The notes under the pieces are model-generated. The model worked only from the letters and a program-made list of their open reading frames with translations. It did no database searches and had not been told where the DNA came from. The translations under genes were made by a program, and so were the position numbers. A DNA stretch of 64,000 bases from an uncultured Alphaproteobacteria bacterium. Lineage in GTDB: Bacteria > Pseudomonadota > Alphaproteobacteria > Caulobacterales > Parvularculaceae. This document shows positions 1,709 through 8,111 of this stretch, in pieces (position 1 is the first letter of the stretch; every line of letters starts with the position of its first letter). Location of the stretch: positions 4,099 to 68,098 of the forward strand of contig CALAZI010000029.1 of NCBI GenBank assembly GCA_937895955.1. The letters run 5' to 3'.

Positions 1709-1788
1709 ATCTCACTTTTCCAATTGCGACAGACGGTCTTGCTAGGCTGATTTGTTCGCAGAGGCCAAGATTGCGGCGGGCGAGGAAA

Positions 1789-3162
1789 ATGGACGGGATG
1801 CGCGAAATCGAATGGCGATCGCCGGTCGACGCCTTCGCGCCGTTGGCGGCGGAGAGAGGCGCCGTCTTTTTTCATCCCGGCGCGCATGCGGCGATGCCCG
1901 GCTGGTCGTTTATCGCCGCTTTCCCGGCGACGCGCGTTGAAAGCCGCAACGGCGCGACGCTGATTGACGGCGGGACGAGCAGCCTTTCGCCTTTCGAGGT
2001 GGTCGATGCGCTGCATCGCGCGCGCCGGTCGGATGCGCTTAGAGAGGCTGCGCCGCCCTTTGCGACCGGCCTTGCCGGCTTTATCGGCTATGAATGCGGC
2101 GCCGCGATCGAACCGAGCGTGCGCCTGCCCGCCTCGCCCTATGATCTTCCCGATTTCTCGATCGGCGCATACGACGCCTGCGCCGCGTTCGACAACGCGC
2201 GGGGCAGGGCGTTCATTTGCTTCCAGTCCCGATCGGCGGCCGATCGTCTGGAAGCTGCGCTCGGAGCCGGCGGCGCCGCCCTCAACGCCGCGCAAGATGC
2301 GTTCGAGCCGCCGCTCGCGCTGACGCCGGCGGATCAATACCGACATTCTGTCGCCGAGGCGATGGAGCGTATTCGCGCCGGCGAATTTTTCCAGGCGAAC
2401 CTGTCCCAGCGGTTCATCATTCGCGCCCGCGCGCCGTTCGATGCTTTCAGCCTTTTCGCCGCCGCGTCGGCTTCGAGCAGCGCGCCTTTCGGAGCGTTTC
2501 TGCCGCAAGAAGGCGCTCAGATTTTGTCGCTGTCGCCGGAGCGCTTCTTCGCCGTCAAGAAACAGGCGGATGAAAGCCTGTCGATCGTCGCCGAACCGAT
2601 CAAGGGCACGCGCCCGCGGGGCCGGACGCCTGACGCCGACCGCCGGCTGCTGCAGGAGCTAATGAACGATCCGAAAGATCGCGCCGAGAACGTCATGATC
2701 GCCGATCTGACGCGCAATGATCTGTCCCGCATCTGCCTCAATCACAGCATTGCCGAAGAGGCTGTCTGCGAGCCGGTCAGTCATGAAAACGTGCATCATT
2801 TGGTTTCGCGGATCAGCGGCGTTTTGCGCCCGGAGCTGACCGCCGCCGATGCGCTAATGACGCTGTTCCCTTGCGGTTCGATAACCGGCGCGCCGAAAGT
2901 CCAGGCGATGAAGGCGATCGCCGAGATCGAAGGCGCCGGCCGCGGGCCCTATTGCGGCGCGATCGGTTATATTGACGATCGCGGCGGCGCGGATTTCTCC
3001 GTCGCAATCCGCATTGCGATAGCCGAGCGGGAAAAGCTGACGGTCCCGGCGGGCGGCGGCGTCACGCTCAGGAGCGATCCGGATACGGAATATCGTGAGA
3101 CGCTGGCGAAGGCGCATGCATGGACGCGCATCGTCAATGATAGGGATTTGGCGGTCGCATGA
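1789..3162 (+). CDS. pabB: Aminodeoxychorismate synthase component I (chorismate-binding)
   Basis: SPERFF, PIKGTRPRG, KDRAENVMIADLTRNDL, FPCGSITGAPK, YCGAIG motifs. Start 1789 or 1798. Confidence 0.85.
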   Translation: MDGMREIEWRSPVDAFAPLAAERGAVFFHPGAHAAMPGWSFIAAFPATRVESRNGATLIDGGTSSLSPFEVVDALHRARRSDALREAAPPFATGLAGFIGYECGAAIEPSVRLPASPYDLPDFSIGAYDACAAFDNARGRAFICFQSRSAADRLEAALGAGGAALNAAQDAFEPPLALTPADQYRHSVAEAMERIRAGEFFQANLSQRFIIRARAPFDAFSLFAAASASSSAPFGAFLPQEGAQILSLSPERFFAVKKQADESLSIVAEPIKGTRPRGRTPDADRRLLQELMNDPKDRAENVMIADLTRNDLSRICLNHSIAEEAVCEPVSHENVHHLVSRISGVLRPELTAADALMTLFPCGSITGAPKVQAMKAIAEIEGAGRGPYCGAIGYIDDRGGADFSVAIRIAIAEREKLTVPAGGGVTLRSDPDTEYRETLAKAHAWTRIVNDRDLAVA

Positions 3163-3740
3163 TCCTCATCATCGATAATTACGATTCGTTCGTGCACAAC
3201 CTCGCGCGCTATGTGCGCGAGGCGGGCTGCGAGGCGACGGTCGTCCGCAATGACGCCGCCGCCGCCGAGGCGCTTTTGAGGGCGGCGCCCGACGCCGTCG
3301 TCATTTCGCCGGGCCCCAAAACGCCTGCTGAAGCCGGCCTGTCGCTCGATCTCATCCGAAAACTGCCGATCGAAATCCCGCTTCTCGGCGTCTGTCTCGG
3401 TCATCAATGTCTTGTAGAAGCGTTCGGCGGACGCACCGTCCGCTCCAGGGAGCCGCTTCATGGCGAAGCGAGCGCAATCGATCATGACGGACGGGGTCTC
3501 TTCGCCGGCCTCGCCTCGCCGATGCTCGCCGGACGCTATCACTCGCTTGTCTCGGAGCTCGCGCCCGACGGACCGTTGTCCGCCTGCGCGTTCAGCGAAG
3601 CGGGCGAGGTGATGGGCGTGCGACATCAAACGGCGCCCTGGCATGGCGTGCAGTTTCATCCCGAATCGCTTCTGACGCCTGACGGCCGGCGTCTGATCGG
3701 CAATTTTCTGGGCGAGATCAAAGCGAGAGCGGCCGCGTGA
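3159..3740 (+). CDS. pabA: Glutamine amidotransferase, ADC/anthranilate synthase component II
   Basis: IDNYDSFVHNL, SPGPKTP, GVCLGHQ, GVQFHPES; 4-nt overlap with pabB. Confidence 0.88.
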   Translation: MILIIDNYDSFVHNLARYVREAGCEATVVRNDAAAAEALLRAAPDAVVISPGPKTPAEAGLSLDLIRKLPIEIPLLGVCLGHQCLVEAFGGRTVRSREPLHGEASAIDHDGRGLFAGLASPMLAGRYHSLVSELAPDGPLSACAFSEAGEVMGVRHQTAPWHGVQFHPESLLTPDGRRLIGNFLGEIKARAAA

Positions 3741-4594
3741 TTGTCTGGCGTGACGGCGAGCATGTCGACGGCGGCTCCGCGATTGGGGTTGAGGATCGCG
3801 GCTGGCTGATCGGCGATGCGGCGTTCGAGACGGTCCTCGTTGACAACGCGCGCGCGGCGTTCCTCGATCGTCATCTCGCGCGGCTCGATCGCGGCGCGCG
3901 CACGCTTGGCATGAACGCCTGCATCGATACGGGTAAAATCGCCGCCGCGATCGCCGAAACGGCAAGACGCAGCGGCGTTGACGGGCGCGGCGCCTGCCGA
4001 CTGACGCTGAGCCGGGTCGGCGGGCCGCGCGGCCTTGCGCCGTCGGCTGCGGCGCGCGCCCGGCTTGTGATATCGATCGCCCCCGCTGCGCCGCCGCGCG
4101 AACCGATGCGGTTGATCATCTCCGGCCGCCGGCGCTGGACCGGCGCGTCGACGAATGCGTTCAAATGCGCGGGCGCTTATGCTGAAAATTTTCTGGCGCG
4201 CGCCGAAGCCGCCGCCGCAGGCGCGAATGAGGCGGTGATGCTGAACGAAAAAGGGCGCGTCGCCTGTCTCAGCGCCGCCAACATTTTCATCGTCCGCGAA
4301 GGCGAGATTGTCACCCCGTCCGAAGAAGAAGGCGCGCTCGCCGGCGTCGTCCGCGGCGTCCTCATCGAGGAGGCGGGGCGAATGGGAATCAGGGTGAAAG
4401 AAGCGCTGATCGCGCCCGAAAAGCTTTCCGGCGCCGCCATGATCGCGACAAACTCCATTGCCGGCGCCGTGCGAAGCGTTCTTGATGGCGAGGCGACGAT
4501 CGAGGATGCGGAAACGGCAGATCGGCTGATCGCCGCTTATGACCGGCGTCTCGCCGAAGAATTCGCTGCGCCTGCGCCCGAGGAGAAAGCGTGA
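3737..4594 (+). CDS. pabC: Class IV PLP enzyme, probable 4-amino-4-deoxychorismate lyase
   Basis: DRGWLIGDAAFETV, HLARL, FK (PLP lysine), ANIF, ALAGVVR; GTG start overlapping pabA stop; pab context. Confidence 0.7.
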   Translation: MIVWRDGEHVDGGSAIGVEDRGWLIGDAAFETVLVDNARAAFLDRHLARLDRGARTLGMNACIDTGKIAAAIAETARRSGVDGRGACRLTLSRVGGPRGLAPSAAARARLVISIAPAAPPREPMRLIISGRRRWTGASTNAFKCAGAYAENFLARAEAAAAGANEAVMLNEKGRVACLSAANIFIVREGEIVTPSEEEGALAGVVRGVLIEEAGRMGIRVKEALIAPEKLSGAAMIATNSIAGAVRSVLDGEATIEDAETADRLIAAYDRRLAEEFAAPAPEEKA

Positions 4595-5748
4595 AAGCCT
4601 TCACTTTTTCGGAAGACCAGCTTTCCTCCGTCGCCGCCGCCCTCGTCGTCGACGAACTCGGCGCGCGCTTTTCGCGGCATGTCGACACGCTGACCGCTTC
4701 CGGCTGGTCCGCCGCGACGAAACTCGGCGATGAGGGGGCGGAATTGTCCGCGGCGGAGGCGGCCGCCTGTCTGCGCCGTCTGTTCGCTTTTTTCGGCCGC
4801 CTTGACCGGGCGCCGAAAACGCTTGCGGCCGACAGCATCGGCGATTGGGTCAAGGCGATCGCCGCGGCGATCGATGAGCGCCTGACCGAGTTCTCGTTTG
4901 CCGCCGCGGCGGATGAGCGTCGCCCTTTCACGCATGCGGCGGACGCGATCTTCGCCGATGCGGCGTCAGCGGCCAATCTTCTTTACGGCCGCCGCCGCGT
5001 TCTTTCCCTCGTCGCGCCGCACGGCCTTATCGGCTTCGTTCTCGGCGTGCTGGCGCCCAATCTCCTGCAGGCCCCGACGGTTGATGCGCGCAAGATGACG
5101 CCGGATGAGTTGAACGCCGCGCTTTCCTTCGGCGATGCGCTGATCGCGACCCCAAGCCTTTGGCGCTACATTCTGGCGCAGGACATTCTCGCCCCCGACA
5201 ATGCGATGGCGGTCTCTTTCGGCGAGCCGATGACGGTTGAGCTGTCGGCGAAGATCCGAAGGGCCGGCTTCGGCGCCCAGCGTGAAATTTACGGATCGAC
5301 AGAGCACGGCCTTATCGGCTGGCGCGATTCCCCGAGCGAGCCGTTTGCGCTCTTTGATCAGTGGGCGCGGCGCGGCGAGGATTTGCGCCGCGCGACGCCG
5401 TCGGGCGAAGCCGTGGACGTCATTCCGGTGGACGTTATCGCCTGGGAGGGCGATCGGCGGTTTCGACTTGGCGGCCGGCGCGACGGGGCGGTCCAGATCG
5501 GGGCCGTCAACGTCTTTCCCGATCGCATCGCGCAACGAATCGCCGAGCATCCCGATGTCGCCGCATGCGTCATCTCCGTTTCGCAGGATTCCGCCGGCGG
5601 CGAACGGCTCGTCGCCCTCATTACGCTCAACACCAAGCTTGCGCCGTCGGAATCGGTTGCGCGGTCGATCGACATGTGGTGCCGGTCGCATCTTCGCCCG
5701 CACGAACGCCCGCGCATTTACAATTACGCGGCGCCGCGCCAGCGATAA
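4591..5748 (+). CDS. p-coumarate-CoA ligase (PYP-activation family)-like protein, apparently lacking ATP-binding motifs
   Basis: 385 aa; RRVLSLVAPHGLIGF, ATPSLWRY, EIYGSTE, GRRDGAVQIGAVNVFP, ERP match the short ANL-family pCL layout; GTG overlaps pabC stop. Confidence 0.7.
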   Translation: MKAFTFSEDQLSSVAAALVVDELGARFSRHVDTLTASGWSAATKLGDEGAELSAAEAAACLRRLFAFFGRLDRAPKTLAADSIGDWVKAIAAAIDERLTEFSFAAAADERRPFTHAADAIFADAASAANLLYGRRRVLSLVAPHGLIGFVLGVLAPNLLQAPTVDARKMTPDELNAALSFGDALIATPSLWRYILAQDILAPDNAMAVSFGEPMTVELSAKIRRAGFGAQREIYGSTEHGLIGWRDSPSEPFALFDQWARRGEDLRRATPSGEAVDVIPVDVIAWEGDRRFRLGGRRDGAVQIGAVNVFPDRIAQRIAEHPDVAACVISVSQDSAGGERLVALITLNTKLAPSESVARSIDMWCRSHLRPHERPRIYNYAAPRQR

Positions 5749-5775
5749 AAAAGGCCCTCCGGGGAGGGCCTTTTC
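5747..5775. terminator. Bidirectional intrinsic terminator between pCL-like gene and cpaI-like gene
   Basis: AAAAGGCCCTC-CGGG-GAGGGCCTTTT hairpin with A and T tracts between convergent genes. Confidence 0.85.
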
Positions 5776-5795
5776 CATTTCGCTTTGTTGAATTT

Positions 5796-6245
5796 CTATT
5801 CGGAAGGCGCCGCCGAGCTCGCCGCCTGCTGGAATTTTTGCTGCGTTTGGGAAGAGACGGCCCCGAACGCTTCCGGCGCGTCGCCGATCGTCAAGGTCTG
5901 CTCGCACACGCTTGTGCAGTTATAGGTGAAGCGTTGTCCGCCGCGCTGAAGCGTCAAAAGATCGGAATTCGAGGCGCGGACGCGGACGATGAGATTTTCA
6001 ATCTCGTTGCCTTCAGCGTCGAAAAGAAACATGTTCGTCAAGCCGGGCGCCTTGCCGAACAGAAGAACGCGCGACTTGTCCCGAACGGTGATGTCGGCGA
6101 TCCCGGGATTGCCGATGACGATCTGATCGACTTCCTGCTTGAACTCGTAGGGCTTGACCTGATCCATCGTCACCCAGACCTGCTCCGCCGTCGCGGCTGT
6201 TGCGAACAGGCAGGCGGCTGAGAGCGAAAGTGAGAATAAACGCAT
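5796..6245 (-). CDS. Pilus formation N-terminal domain protein (T2SS-T3SS_pil_N; CpaI/PilQ-like)
   Basis: Signal peptide then IVIGNPGIADITV...LLFGKAPGLTNMFLFD...FTYNCTSVC; divergent from flp. Confidence 0.8.
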   Translation of the reverse strand: MRLFSLSLSAACLFATAATAEQVWVTMDQVKPYEFKQEVDQIVIGNPGIADITVRDKSRVLLFGKAPGLTNMFLFDAEGNEIENLIVRVRASNSDLLTLQRGGQRFTYNCTSVCEQTLTIGDAPEAFGAVSSQTQQKFQQAASSAAPSE

Positions 6246-6302
6246 CGCGACGTTTTCCTTGAATGCTTGCTTTCGAGGTAGCGCGGATGAGTCAAAAAAG
6301 GC

Positions 6303-6318
6303 TTAAACGGACTTTAAC
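6303..6318. promoter_or_regulatory. CtrA box
   Basis: TTAA-ACGGACT-TTAAC, a perfect TTAA-N7-TTAAC between divergent cpaI-like and crp-like genes. Confidence 0.75.
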
Positions 6319-6408
6319 GCAACCACGCCGGCGTCCTATGAATTTCCCGAAAATTTTATGTTTTACCGCGCCTTAAAGAGTTGAAGATGTAGATAGGCGA
6401 GGGAGATT

Positions 6409-7131
6409 TTGATGCTTGCCAATCCTTCTCTAAAGGAAACGGACAGCGAAGCGCCGATCGTCGACGCGATCGCCGCCACAGCGCCGTTTTCCGACCTTCA
6501 GCGCCAGACGCTCGATGCGCTCGCCGACGCCGCCAGCCGGCGCCGTTACGCCGAAGGCGAAACGATTTTCGCGATGGGCCAATATGACGGCTCTGAATTC
6601 CTGATCGTGCGCGCGGGAAAGCTCAAGGCGTCGCATGTCGATCCGGCCTCAGGCTCGATGATCTTCGAAGAAGTTCGAGAGGGTCAAATTTTCGGTCTCG
6701 CTCAGGCCGCAATCGGTTTGGAAACCGCCGGCGCCGGGTCTGTGACCGTGCTCGCCGAACGGGAAAGCGAAATTATCGCCGTTGATGCGGAAGCCTTGCG
6801 CGAGCTTTCGGCGCAGCGCCCGAAGCTGACGCGCGCATTGATGGTGCATTTCGCCGAACGCCTTATCGGCGGCGGACGCGGCGAAGAGGAAAGCTCTCCA
6901 GAGCGCCGCGTTTACGCGGCGCTTTGCGGTTACGTCGAGCGCGACGCCGTCGCCGGATGCTGGCGCATCGCCAAAATGCCCAAACACCGGGAGCTCGCCG
7001 ACAGGGCCGATGCGGACGAGGCGGTCGCCGCAAGCGCGGTCGCCAAGCTTATCCAGAGCGGCGTCGCGCGGCGCGACTATCCGGGACTGATCATCGACGA
7101 CATGGCGCAGCTCAACAGGCTCGCGCGCTGA
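6409..7131 (+). CDS. Crp/Fnr-family protein (cNMP-binding fold plus HTH), degenerate motifs
   Basis: FSDLQRQTLDALA...GETIFAMG...GQIFG cNMP fold; C-terminal MPKHRELAD..LIQSG wHTH. Confidence 0.75.
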   Translation: MMLANPSLKETDSEAPIVDAIAATAPFSDLQRQTLDALADAASRRRYAEGETIFAMGQYDGSEFLIVRAGKLKASHVDPASGSMIFEEVREGQIFGLAQAAIGLETAGAGSVTVLAERESEIIAVDAEALRELSAQRPKLTRALMVHFAERLIGGGRGEEESSPERRVYAALCGYVERDAVAGCWRIAKMPKHRELADRADADEAVAASAVAKLIQSGVARRDYPGLIIDDMAQLNRLAR

Positions 7132-7142
7132 TTTTGTTTTTG

Positions 7143-7150
7143 TTAACCAT
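7143..7150 (+). promoter_or_regulatory. CtrA half-site upstream of flp
   Basis: TTAACCAT in the AT-rich region 146 nt upstream of the flp ATG. Confidence 0.5.
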
Positions 7151-7295
7151 AATTATCCGTAAACGAACATTTTGTGCAAATAGCGGTTCTTTTTCATCGA
7201 TTATTAATTCCTGGATAGCATCATGATCCCAGTCTGAAGAGGGGTAACGCCCGTTCAGCGGTGCAAGCGTAAGAGTAACAAGCAGGAGTCGACTC

Positions 7296-7466
7296 ATGAA
7301 AGCTCTTATCAACAAGTTCATCAAAGACGAAGACGGCGCGACGGCCATCGAATACGGCCTTATCGCGGCGCTCATCGCGGTCGCCATCATCACCGCGGTT
7401 CGCGCGGTTGGCGGCGAGCTGTCTTCGACCTTCTCGGAAGTCGAAAGCGAATTGGCGAACCGCTAA
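7296..7466 (+). CDS. pilA: Flp/PilA type IVc pilin (56 aa; absent from ORF track)
   Basis: MKALINKFIKDEDG|ATAIEYGLIAALIAVAIITAVRAVGGELSSTFSEVESELANR*; Flp motif with E+5 and Y+6; RBS AGGAG. Confidence 0.95.
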   Translation: MKALINKFIKDEDGATAIEYGLIAALIAVAIITAVRAVGGELSSTFSEVESELANR

Positions 7467-7490
7467 TTCCATCGTCAAACGTTCAAGACG

Positions 7491-7520
7491 GAAAAGGAGG
7501 CTTCGGCCTCCTTTTCTTTT
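7491..7520 (+). terminator. Intrinsic terminator after flp
   Basis: GAAAAGGAGGC-TTCG-GCCTCCTTTTC followed by TTTT. Confidence 0.9.
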
Positions 7521-7542
7521 ATGATTCAAACCGAACTTATGT

Positions 7543-7557
7543 CTAACTGAATGTTAA
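7543..7557. promoter_or_regulatory. CtrA-like box upstream of cpaA
   Basis: CTAA-CTGAATG-TTAA, one mismatch to consensus. Confidence 0.5.
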
Positions 7558-7604
7558 GCGCCCAGGCCTAGTTTCGCCTCAACGGCAATCTGGAGCGGGC
7601 GAGC

Positions 7605-8111
7605 GTGATATCCCTGATTTTTCTTTCGGCGTTTCCTGCGGCTTTGATCATCGCCGCGATGAATGATCTTTACGAATACAAAATCCCGAACTGGGTTTCG
7701 ATCGTCCTGTTTTGCTCTTATTTTGTCGCCGGCGTCGGGCTCGGCGCGCCGCCGGCGCAGCTTATGGAAGGGTTTTTGTTCGCCTGCGCGGCGCTTGTCG
7801 TCGGGTTTGCGCTTTTCGCCGGAAAAGTTCTCGGCGGCGGCGATGCGAAGCTTATCGCGGCGTGCGCCCCATGGATCGGGCCGTCGGCGCTGGTCCCGTT
7901 TCTCATCAACACCGCTTTCGCAGGCGGCGTTTTCGCAATCGTCCTCATCATGTTCCGAAAGACTCCTGCGCTGCCTGTTTACGCGCACGCGCCGTGGCTT
8001 TTGCGTTTGCATCAGCGGCCGAAGGATATTCCGTACGCGGTTGCGATAGCGGCGGGCGGACTTCTTAGCTTTTCGCAAACGCCGTTCTTCCAATTGGCCT
8101 TTGGCGGTTAA
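7605..8111 (+). CDS. cpaA: Prepilin peptidase CpaA/TadV (A24)
   Basis: NDLYEYKIPN and GGGDAKL aspartic motifs, C-terminal IPYAVAI; GTG start. Confidence 0.92.
   Translation: MISLIFLSAFPAALIIAAMNDLYEYKIPNWVSIVLFCSYFVAGVGLGAPPAQLMEGFLFACAALVVGFALFAGKVLGGGDAKLIAACAPWIGPSALVPFLINTAFAGGVFAIVLIMFRKTPALPVYAHAPWLLRLHQRPKDIPYAVAIAAGGLLSFSQTPFFQLAFGG

Follow-up and report, generated by a model that had tools for sequence, protein, structure and literature searches.

What becomes of a ligase of the photoactive yellow protein (PYP) pathway when its adenylation motifs are gone and its gene lies at the end of an operon for p-aminobenzoate (PABA) synthesis? This question is raised by an open reading frame (ORF) in a 64,000-nucleotide stretch of contig CALAZI010000029.1, from an uncultured Parvularculaceae bacterium; the whole stretch is called the window here, and its own coordinates are used throughout. 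The ORF, at 4591-5748 on the plus strand, runs uninterrupted, as a preliminary description made from the sequence alone had reported; it has a GTG start and a TAA stop and encodes 385 aa. That description regarded the product as a homolog of PYP-type p-coumarate-CoA ligases (pCLs) that had turned into a pseudoenzyme, and suggested a non-catalytic sensor or scaffold of ANL fold. We found that the protein belongs to a clade that is confined to one bacterial family, in which the residues for the ancestral reaction are lost while the gene is held under purifying selection. These results strongly support, at the level of sequence, that the clade protein is a selected pseudo-ligase, as had been proposed.

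The assignment to the PYP-type family was confirmed by two kinds of comparison. TIGR02372, the equivalog model of PYP-type 4-coumarate--CoA ligases, was the top NCBIfam match of the protein (E 3.5e-48, residues 30-380), with a score of 164.2 bits that is about half the curated cut-off of 334.7; other clade members scored 151-192 bits, and the intact relatives P0134, P0135 and P0138 scored 336-365 bits. When profiles of 101 clade sequences and 69 intact pCLs were aligned with hhalign, the match was collinear over all 385 residues (probability 100%, E 5.6e-82, 31% identity), and the domain architecture was shared along the full length. In the Pfam search of the query protein, AMP-binding_C alone was detected (28 bits, threshold 24.5), and the N-terminal AMP-binding domain was not. 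Some sources label clade proteins as a "4-coumarate--CoA ligase (PYP activation family)", or else as a "long-chain acyl-CoA synthetase", and these existing labels are almost certainly wrong.

Relatives of the protein fell into two groups. A word-indexed search returned more than 120 full-length relatives of 376-401 aa at 52-83% identity, with Parvularculaceae, Parvularcula, Amphiplicatus, Hyphococcus and Marinicaulis as the named sources, and an exhaustive HMMER search of 1.84 billion representatives returned 1543 hits. The top 12 HMMER clusters (>200 bits, 40-58% identity) represented the same clade, and those below about 190 bits (28-36% identity, about 400 aa) represented the wider pCL family. 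Altogether, more than 200 full-length orthologs were found down to 40% identity, all of the Parvularculaceae type. The two groups were split cleanly by a motif scan: the clade lacked the P-loop and ended 5-20 residues past ERPR, and nearly every member of the wider family carried a DSL motif, TSGSTGxPK or a close variant (TSGSQGxPK) at about residues 105-115, and a C-terminal LPxNxMGKxxDW. In a neighbor-joining tree the clade was monophyletic, on a stem about four times as long as the median internal branch. Several members of the wider family pass the TIGR02372 cut-off and one, P0244, is fused to an aromatic lyase, which indicates that the wider family consists of genuine pCLs. P0244 (1322 aa) is a natural fusion of a pCL (about residues 1-400) with an aromatic amino-acid ammonia-lyase (Pfam Lyase_aromatic, 788-1246), and so holds both steps of chromophore synthesis in one polypeptide.

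The features of the gene and its product that bear on catalysis are as follows.

4591-5748, plus strand: degenerate PYP-type pCL homolog of 385 aa with ANL fold, last cistron of the pab operon (TIGR02372, hhalign, AlphaFold2 (AF2) and Foldseek)
4591-4884, plus strand: N-terminal helical domain (aa 1-98), homologous to the acyl carrier protein (ACP)-like domain of intact pCLs (AF2 helices, family profile)
4747-4755, plus strand: S53-A54-A55 at the position of the family D-S-L, with the serine lost (alignments; column 54 is variable across the clade)
4891-4935, plus strand: FSFAAAADERRPFTH, degenerate A3 or P-loop region, aligning with tF.TSGSTGxPK...H of intact pCLs
4984-4998, plus strand: clade-specific YGRRR (aa 132-136), with G133, R134, R135 and R136 invariant in 101 orthologs
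5218-5229, plus strand: FGEP (aa 210-213) where intact pCLs have the S-T/G-A-P (SGAAP-like) nucleotide-pocket motif, with F210, G211 and E212 invariant
5290-5304, plus strand: retained A5 motif YGSTE (aa 234-238), with Y234, G235, T237 and E238 invariant
5431-5433, plus strand: retained A7 aspartate D281, invariant and 15 residues before R296, as in ANL enzymes
5473-5520, plus strand: GRRDGAVQIGAVNVFP (aa 295-310), retained A8 hinge and hairpin, aligning with GRrDgAVQVGGvNVfP, with R296, D298, G299 and A300 invariant
5704-5748, plus strand: ERPRIYNYAAPRQR followed by the stop codon, a C-terminus truncated before the A10 motif LPxNxxGK (sequence and alignments; clade-wide)

Both ends of the catalytic apparatus are missing. 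In the profile-profile alignment and in a second comparison, a 145-sequence MAFFT alignment, the query showed AAADE--RR opposite TSGSTGxPK, including a deletion of two residues, and the region as a whole reads FSFxAAGxx--RxxxH in the clade against TFxTSGSTGxPKxCTH in intact pCLs. At the other end, intact pCLs continue from ERP to LPxNxxGK and clade members stop after ERPRIYNF; the alignment of the query with intact pCLs stops at ERPRIYNY, and the protein ends 10 residues after ERPR. The losses of the P-loop and of the A10 lysine motif, both read by the preliminary description from the strings that we find in place (aa 101-115, nt 4891-4935, and the terminal YNYAAPRQR), were thus borne out. Neither a P-loop nor a lysine tail was present in the 12 representative clusters or in the more than 120 orthologs examined, and motif losses that are common to every ortholog examined can be attributed neither to sequencing error nor to chance. 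The ANL motifs could in principle have been displaced, a case that the earlier work had named as contrary to its view. Among 101 orthologs, the sole columns with at least 90% lysine are K2 and position 224, which is an arginine in the query, and no conserved site for a substitute P-loop or lysine was found.

The two losses do not carry the same weight. Two relatives, P0133 (L081 5208-6392) and P0220 (L083 8001-9161), keep the P-loop and DSL, end right after ERP and have no A10 lysine. Since they lie beside pyp genes and have intact P-loops, little can be concluded about inactivity from a missing A10 lysine by itself, and its loss alone seems compatible with a PYP-linked role. As judged from the alignments, it is the P-loop, the serine and the remaining changes, not the A10 lysine alone, that set the clade apart. 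These remaining changes affect A4, which is VPAHHIYGF in intact pCLs and VAPH(S/G)LIGF in the clade, so that the second histidine, the canonical one of FH(I/V)Y, is lost, and the nucleotide pocket, which is GVTSTAP (SGAAP-like) in intact pCLs and AVSFGEP in the clade.

Other ANL motifs were kept, as had been noted for YGSTE, the A8 segment and ERP, and D281 can be added to them. A5 is YGSSET in intact pCLs and YGSTE in the clade, and A8 is GRRDGAVQVGGVNVFP in intact pCLs and GRRDGAVQIGAVNVFP in the clade; of the motifs that mark catalytic ANL members, A5 (YGxTE), A7 (Asp) and A8 (GRxD...G..V.P) are present, and A3 and A10 are absent. The clade also has invariant motifs of its own that are absent from the intact family, namely YGRRR (132-136), ATPxLWRY (186-193), PDN (202-204), FGEP (210-213) and WRD (244-246). 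A role as a polyanion binder, considered for the many invariant arginines, was rejected, as clade and intact family have the same median pI (6.0) and a similar arginine content.

The gene is maintained by selection. Nei-Gojobori ratios of nonsynonymous to synonymous substitutions (dN/dS) of the ANL gene were 0.04-0.10 in close ortholog pairs (dS 0.29-0.47) and 0.10-0.20 between the window and its nearest relatives, and those of pabB and pabC in the same pairs were higher (0.20-0.35). In addition, 45 columns were invariant among the 101 ortholog sequences. The overall range of 0.04-0.2 indicates strong purifying selection, so that the gene is not a pseudogene; neutral decay among orthologs had been named in the preliminary description as contrary to its view. 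One copy in a metagenome-assembled genome (L053 8001-9133) is split over three frames, in pieces 60-70% identical to the query; because the three frames lie within otherwise conserved sequence, the frameshifts are probably homopolymer errors of long-read sequencing and not a real pseudogene.

Loss of the motifs coincides with a complete change of genomic partners. We collected 116 loci of the clade (80 from genomes and 36 from metagenomes) and 46 loci of intact relatives, and searched them by tblastn with the window proteins, two real PYPs and one real tyrosine ammonia-lyase (TAL) domain. A PYP homolog was found in 41 of the 46 intact loci and TAL in six, and pab genes were found in none of them. 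In the 116 clade loci there was neither PYP nor TAL, and nearly all had pab genes. The closest P-loop-bearing relatives, P0133 and P0220, are located immediately downstream of PYP genes encoding 125-129 aa, whose products are 70-74% identical to what we take to be the PYP sequence of Halorhodospira halophila. Within the 64-kb window, tblastn with the two PYPs and the TAL domain returned nothing at E<=0.9, and Pfam found no aromatic lyase among the ten largest other ORFs, in agreement with the earlier remark that no pyp or tal gene is present; the association with pyp and TAL that characterizes TIGR02372 members is therefore absent from both the 116 clade loci and the window.

The new neighborhood is regular. 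The pabC gene lies directly upstream of the ANL gene in 85 of 93 judgeable clade loci, the stop and start codons of the two overlap by 4 nt in 80 of 95, and in 99 of 107 the next gene downstream encodes a protein with a pilus N-terminal domain. In Parvularcula mediterranea, the pabB-pabA-pabC-ANL order is intact though both flanks differ, with M23 and S41 peptidases upstream and an M17 aminopeptidase and a PAS histidine kinase downstream. The most divergent members, such as P0125 at 40% identity, were considered as possible cases of another taxon with another gene context; this was not borne out, as they occupy the same syntenic site, with or without pabBAC.

In the window, the operon and its signals are arranged as follows.

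1771-3162, plus strand: pabB-like gene, aminodeoxychorismate (ADC) synthase component I, first gene of the operon (Pfam Chorismate_bind, 272 bits)
3159-3740, plus strand: pabA, glutamine amidotransferase component II, class I (TIGR00566 trpG_papA, 186.8 bits, above the cut-off of 121; Pfam GATase, 181 bits)
3737-4594, plus strand: pabC-like gene, class IV aminotransferase fold, putative aminodeoxychorismate lyase (Pfam Aminotran_4, 156.8 bits)
4580-4585, plus strand: Shine-Dalgarno-like GAGGAG, 5 nt before the GTG start, read from the sequence
5749-5776, both strands: bidirectional hairpin terminator shared by the convergent ANL and pilus-N-domain genes, AAAAGGCCCTCCGGGGAGGGCCTTTT (from folding)

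Consecutive genes overlap at each junction, with ATGA between pabB and pabA, GTGA between pabA and pabC, and GTGA between pabC and the ANL gene, where the TGA stop of pabC at 4592-4594 overlaps the GTG start at 4591. The hairpin is GC-rich, lies directly past the ANL stop codon and has U-runs on both strands; it was missed by a simple consensus terminator scanner and revealed by RNA folding, with AAAAGGCCCTCCGGGGAGGGCCTTTT giving -18.2 kcal/mol on the plus strand (z -3.0) and -22.1 kcal/mol on the minus strand (z -4.1). Beyond it are the pilus N-terminal-domain gene on the minus strand, a cNMP-binding regulator and the Tad/Cpa pilus cluster. The gene had been described as placed between pab and Tad genes. 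This is correct as to position, but by its GTGA overlap, ribosome-binding site and terminator it is really the last cistron of the pabB-pabA-pabC operon, to which it is coupled in translation and with which it is predicted to be co-transcribed, and its convergent orientation and the shared terminator indicate that it is not co-transcribed with the Tad genes. Two short metatranscriptome contigs match at >=99%, one within the gene (4828-5076) and one across the pabC/ANL junction (4516-4746), and are weak evidence for transcription, including that of the junction.

The upstream proteins carry the signatures of PABA enzymes. The pabB-like protein scored 286-296 bits against the NCBIfam PabB and TrpE models, all under the curated cut-offs, and has PIKGT at aa 276-280, the signature of Lys-type ADC synthases that is familiar from K274 of Escherichia coli PabB. 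The pabC-like protein scored 93-97 bits against PabC models, also below the cut-offs, was closest to PabC or branched-chain aminotransferases, and keeps the lysine context FKCAGAY. The PabB-like and PabC-like proteins are both below all curated cut-offs, and the whole operon has diverged from the families on which the models were built. We also considered a regulatory RNA such as a riboswitch ahead of the operon and rejected it, since Rfam gave no match in the whole window and the spacer upstream of pabB is only about 60 nt.

The N-terminal domain provides a further view of what was lost, and of the ancestor. When the N-terminal profile of intact pCLs was compared with all PDB sequences (E<=10), 29 hits were obtained, of which 28 were acyl carrier proteins and the remaining one was PigH, which contains an ACP domain; the best E was 0.004, and the DS of the family falls on the phosphopantetheine serine. 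DS[LIVM] occurs within the first ~100 residues in 173 of 186 P-loop-bearing relatives, and the D and S of D-S-L are invariant in an alignment of 22 intact N-termini. One relative, P0335, has a precomputed match to PF00550 (PP-binding), and the Pfam PP-binding search of ten intact pCLs gave no match at E<=0.01. The helices of the AF2 model of the query N-terminus span residues 8-27, 33-37, 54-67 and 83-96. Helix II of ACPs begins at the carrier serine site, which matches residue 54, and a helix of the query starts exactly there. The query thus has the domain of the TIGR02372 family and not its invariant D-S-L: the carrier motif GLGLDSLE of intact pCLs is G-x-x-L-[STDN]-x-x-E in the clade. The loss of the serine had been recognized in the preliminary description, which placed it at "ELS"; its register was off by two, as L-D-S-L of the family lies opposite L52-S53-A54-A55 and the serine site is A54.

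From these alignments, the ancestral architecture is best read as an ACP-like carrier domain with the DSL serine joined to a miniature ANL adenylation core. This suggests that genuine pCLs may load the PYP chromophore onto a carrier arm of their own, instead of or besides free CoA, and an ACP-like domain with an invariant DSL serine in these ligases bears on the real route of chromophore delivery. In a literature search for pCL with phosphopantetheine, no paper mentioning an ACP-like N-terminal domain was found.

The predicted structure is consistent with a retained fold. The AF2 model of the query, built on the clade alignment, has a pLDDT of 91.5 and a pTM of 0.87, and Foldseek matched it to many ANL structures (E about 1e-15, probability 1.00), so that the two-domain ANL fold is indicated by AF2, Foldseek and Pfam AMP-binding_C together. 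The model was 4-6 A in root-mean-square deviation from thioester-forming ANL conformers (3cw9_A, 3nyq and 5x8f) and 11-14 A from adenylate-forming conformers (1t5d, 3cw8 and 4fut). A control AlphaFold model of the intact pCL P0138 (pLDDT 94.4) showed the same preference for the thioester conformer. The idea that the clade is locked in the state of the second half-reaction was dropped for this reason, and the thioester-type conformation of the models is to be ascribed to the family as a whole or to the predictor and is not specific to the clade.

Taken together, the clade descends from the PYP-type 4-coumarate ligase family and is specific to one lineage, the Parvularculaceae and their close kin. 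In it A3, A10, the carrier serine and the A4 histidine were lost, the SGAAP-like motif was changed to FGEP, and the fold, A5, A7 and A8 were kept; the ancestral pyp and TAL neighbors were exchanged for pabB-pabA-pabC, of which the ANL gene is now the last cistron. Having neither the phosphate-binding loop nor the catalytic lysine, the protein would be unable to make an acyl-adenylate, and it would probably also be unable to carry an acyl group on phosphopantetheine. As the ancestor recognized a para-substituted aromatic acid and the gene is now coupled to the enzymes that make p-aminobenzoate, the remodeled aryl-acid and nucleotide cleft may bind such an acid, either PABA or a precursor, and the protein may serve PABA synthesis or hand-off as an accessory subunit, a product-binding protein or a regulator. 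This non-adenylating, PABA-binding accessory role is the reading that we tentatively prefer, at a likelihood that we place a little short of even. A more specific version of it, possible but on the doubtful side, is that the dead chromophore-loading ligase became a fourth, non-catalytic component of PABA synthesis, with PABA or ADC in the old coumarate pocket, that controls PabB, PabA and PabC or passes on their product; in a more radical variant, the thioester/amide half-site alone would be retained and would couple PABA to some acceptor without ATP.

Several observations weigh against the PABA-binding accessory role. The choice of PABA as the ligand draws only on the operon and on the ancestral preference for a para-substituted aryl acid. 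The orthologs belong without exception to a single bacterial lineage, and shared ancestry may account for part of the conserved synteny. Together with the kept A5, A7 and A8, the new invariant motifs could equally indicate a surviving or a new catalysis. In addition, seven genome loci (L038, L039, L041, L048, L052, L058 and L066) and the locus of P0125 (L164) keep the ANL gene without pabBAC; there it is at its usual site, directly after the divergent AI-2E transporter gene, with the remaining synteny kept, and its conservation at such loci shows that it has no strict need of co-transcription with pab. The pab cassette behaves as an insertable or deletable unit between the AI-2E transporter and ANL genes.

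These about eight loci, in which the gene is intact at the same site between the AI-2E transporter and pilus-N-domain genes, also argue for an unlikely but serious alternative, that the protein is conserved and non-catalytic or non-adenylating, has nothing to do with PABA and is linked to pab by inherited synteny; its partner or ligand would then be sought elsewhere, and it might be a leftover of a lost PYP system or have a regulatory or structural role. The slower evolution of the ANL gene than of pabB and pabC fits such independence, and synteny within a single lineage is not independent evidence of a functional link. However, inherited synteny alone accounts poorly for the 4-nt pabC overlap kept in 80 of 95 loci and for the four genes staying together in Parvularcula mediterranea despite changed flanks, and the neighbor on the Tad side, being convergent, is not co-transcribed with the gene.

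It is less likely again that the protein is still an enzyme, though a non-adenylating one, which would use the second (thioester/amide) half-site on a pre-activated acyl donor or carry out new chemistry on PABA or aminodeoxychorismate at the remodeled cleft. Mutagenesis of ANL enzymes, in acetyl-CoA synthetase and 4-chlorobenzoate ligase, ties A3 and A10 to the adenylation half-reaction, and it is these motifs, specific to that half-reaction, that were lost, while no variation is seen in A5, A7 and A8, the motifs responsible for positioning AMP and the pantetheine tunnel. New invariant polar residues (E212, D203/N204, R134-136 and W244-R245-D246) and a conservation unusually tight for a mere scaffold point the same way. 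On the other hand, no free acyl-adenylate donor is known or encoded nearby, the loss of the A4 histidine and the bulky Phe and acidic Glu in the SGAAP pocket speak against AMP binding, and the thioester-type conformation gives no help, since the intact control model adopts it as well.

It is very improbable that the protein is an ordinary CoA ligase that uses ATP to activate an aryl acid such as 4-coumarate or PABA and whose motifs are cryptic: some sources annotate a 4-coumarate--CoA ligase and the ANL fold with A5, A7 and A8 is kept, but the more than 200 orthologs have no P-loop, no C-terminal lysine and no alternative conserved lysine, the score is half the TIGR02372 cut-off, and Pfam AMP-binding is undetected in the query. 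A pseudogene in decay, for which the several lost catalytic motifs and the frameshifted L053 copy might be cited, is refuted by the selection analysis (dN/dS 0.04-0.2, 45 invariant columns in 101 sequences) and by the more than 200 orthologs, which are full length and share their start and stop even at 40% identity, and its probability is negligible.

Comparison with known systems shows how far the clade has moved. By its score, P-loop, lysine, DSL serine and pyp/TAL association the protein falls outside TIGR02372, and it would act at most as a part of a pCL does; by its fold it belongs to the ANL superfamily, with two of the core catalytic motifs missing. PYP-type pCLs (TIGR02372), as in the pyp-pCL-TAL operons of Halorhodospira halophila, are like the clade proteins in length (both ~385-400 aa), in the helical N-terminal domain followed by a short ANL core, and in A5, A7, A8, ERP and many family-specific residues; in contrast, the clade lacks the P-loop, the DSL serine, the A4 histidine and LPxNxxGK, and its genes are never beside pyp or TAL and almost always after pabBAC. 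With the structurally solved ANL aryl-acid CoA ligases (4-chlorobenzoate CoA ligase 3cw9/1t5d, benzoate CoA ligase 4rm3, MatB 4fut and MenE), the query shares the fold (TM about 0.55-0.59 to thioester-state structures), A5, A7 and A8, and the two-domain hinge with its invariant Asp (D298), but it is ~120 residues shorter and only 14-19% identical, is without A3 and A10, and has an ACP-like helical domain in place of the N-terminal subdomain. Fatty acyl-AMP ligases (FAALs) keep adenylation, and their thioester-forming rotation is blocked by an insertion. The concept of a partial two-step cycle is shared with FAALs and other half-reaction ANL members, whereas in the clade it is the adenylation elements that are missing. 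The three upstream genes correspond to the standard PABA set of Lys-type ADC synthase, amidotransferase and class IV-fold lyase; to our knowledge, PABA operons with an ANL-fold gene as a fourth cistron have not been reported.

Searches of the literature on ANL pseudoenzymes and on Parvularcula in connection with aminobenzoate returned no conserved ANL homolog without both the P-loop and the lysine and no ANL gene in a PABA operon, absence from the searchable literature being no proof; conserved, selected ANL members of this kind are essentially undescribed. The motifs are lost throughout the clade, purifying selection is tight and the genomic partners have changed completely, which makes the clade a clean natural example in which one can ask what the ANL fold does once it is unable to adenylate. 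The protein is possibly an unrecognized accessory factor of PABA synthesis in some Alphaproteobacteria, which would bear on folate metabolism and sulfonamide action, and if a dead ligase was indeed recruited, a folate-precursor pathway would have its first ANL-fold pseudoenzyme.

The rest of the window has the appearance of a chromosomal core region. The other large ORFs that were examined are housekeeping genes (Tad ATPase, SLT transglycosylase, ETF-QO, DsbD, TolB, a TilS-like PP-loop protein, FtsH and M19 dipeptidase), and no Rfam family reached its gathering score anywhere in the 64 kb, which fits such a region. In the Tad/Cpa cluster, synteny with L164-L166 identifies the 168-aa ORF at 7605-8111 on the plus strand as the prepilin peptidase CpaA (Peptidase_A24), the 179-aa ORF at 7554-8093 on the minus strand is probably its shadow, and the interval from 7131 to 7605 should hold a small gene for a Flp pilin. 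A 4.6-kb metagenome contig (L105, Ga0116142_10019311) has 99-100% protein identity to about 3100-7700 of the window, and near-identical DNA was found in many activated-sludge and wastewater metagenomes (runs X1-X20); the window organism is a recurrent wastewater bacterium of the Parvularculaceae type.

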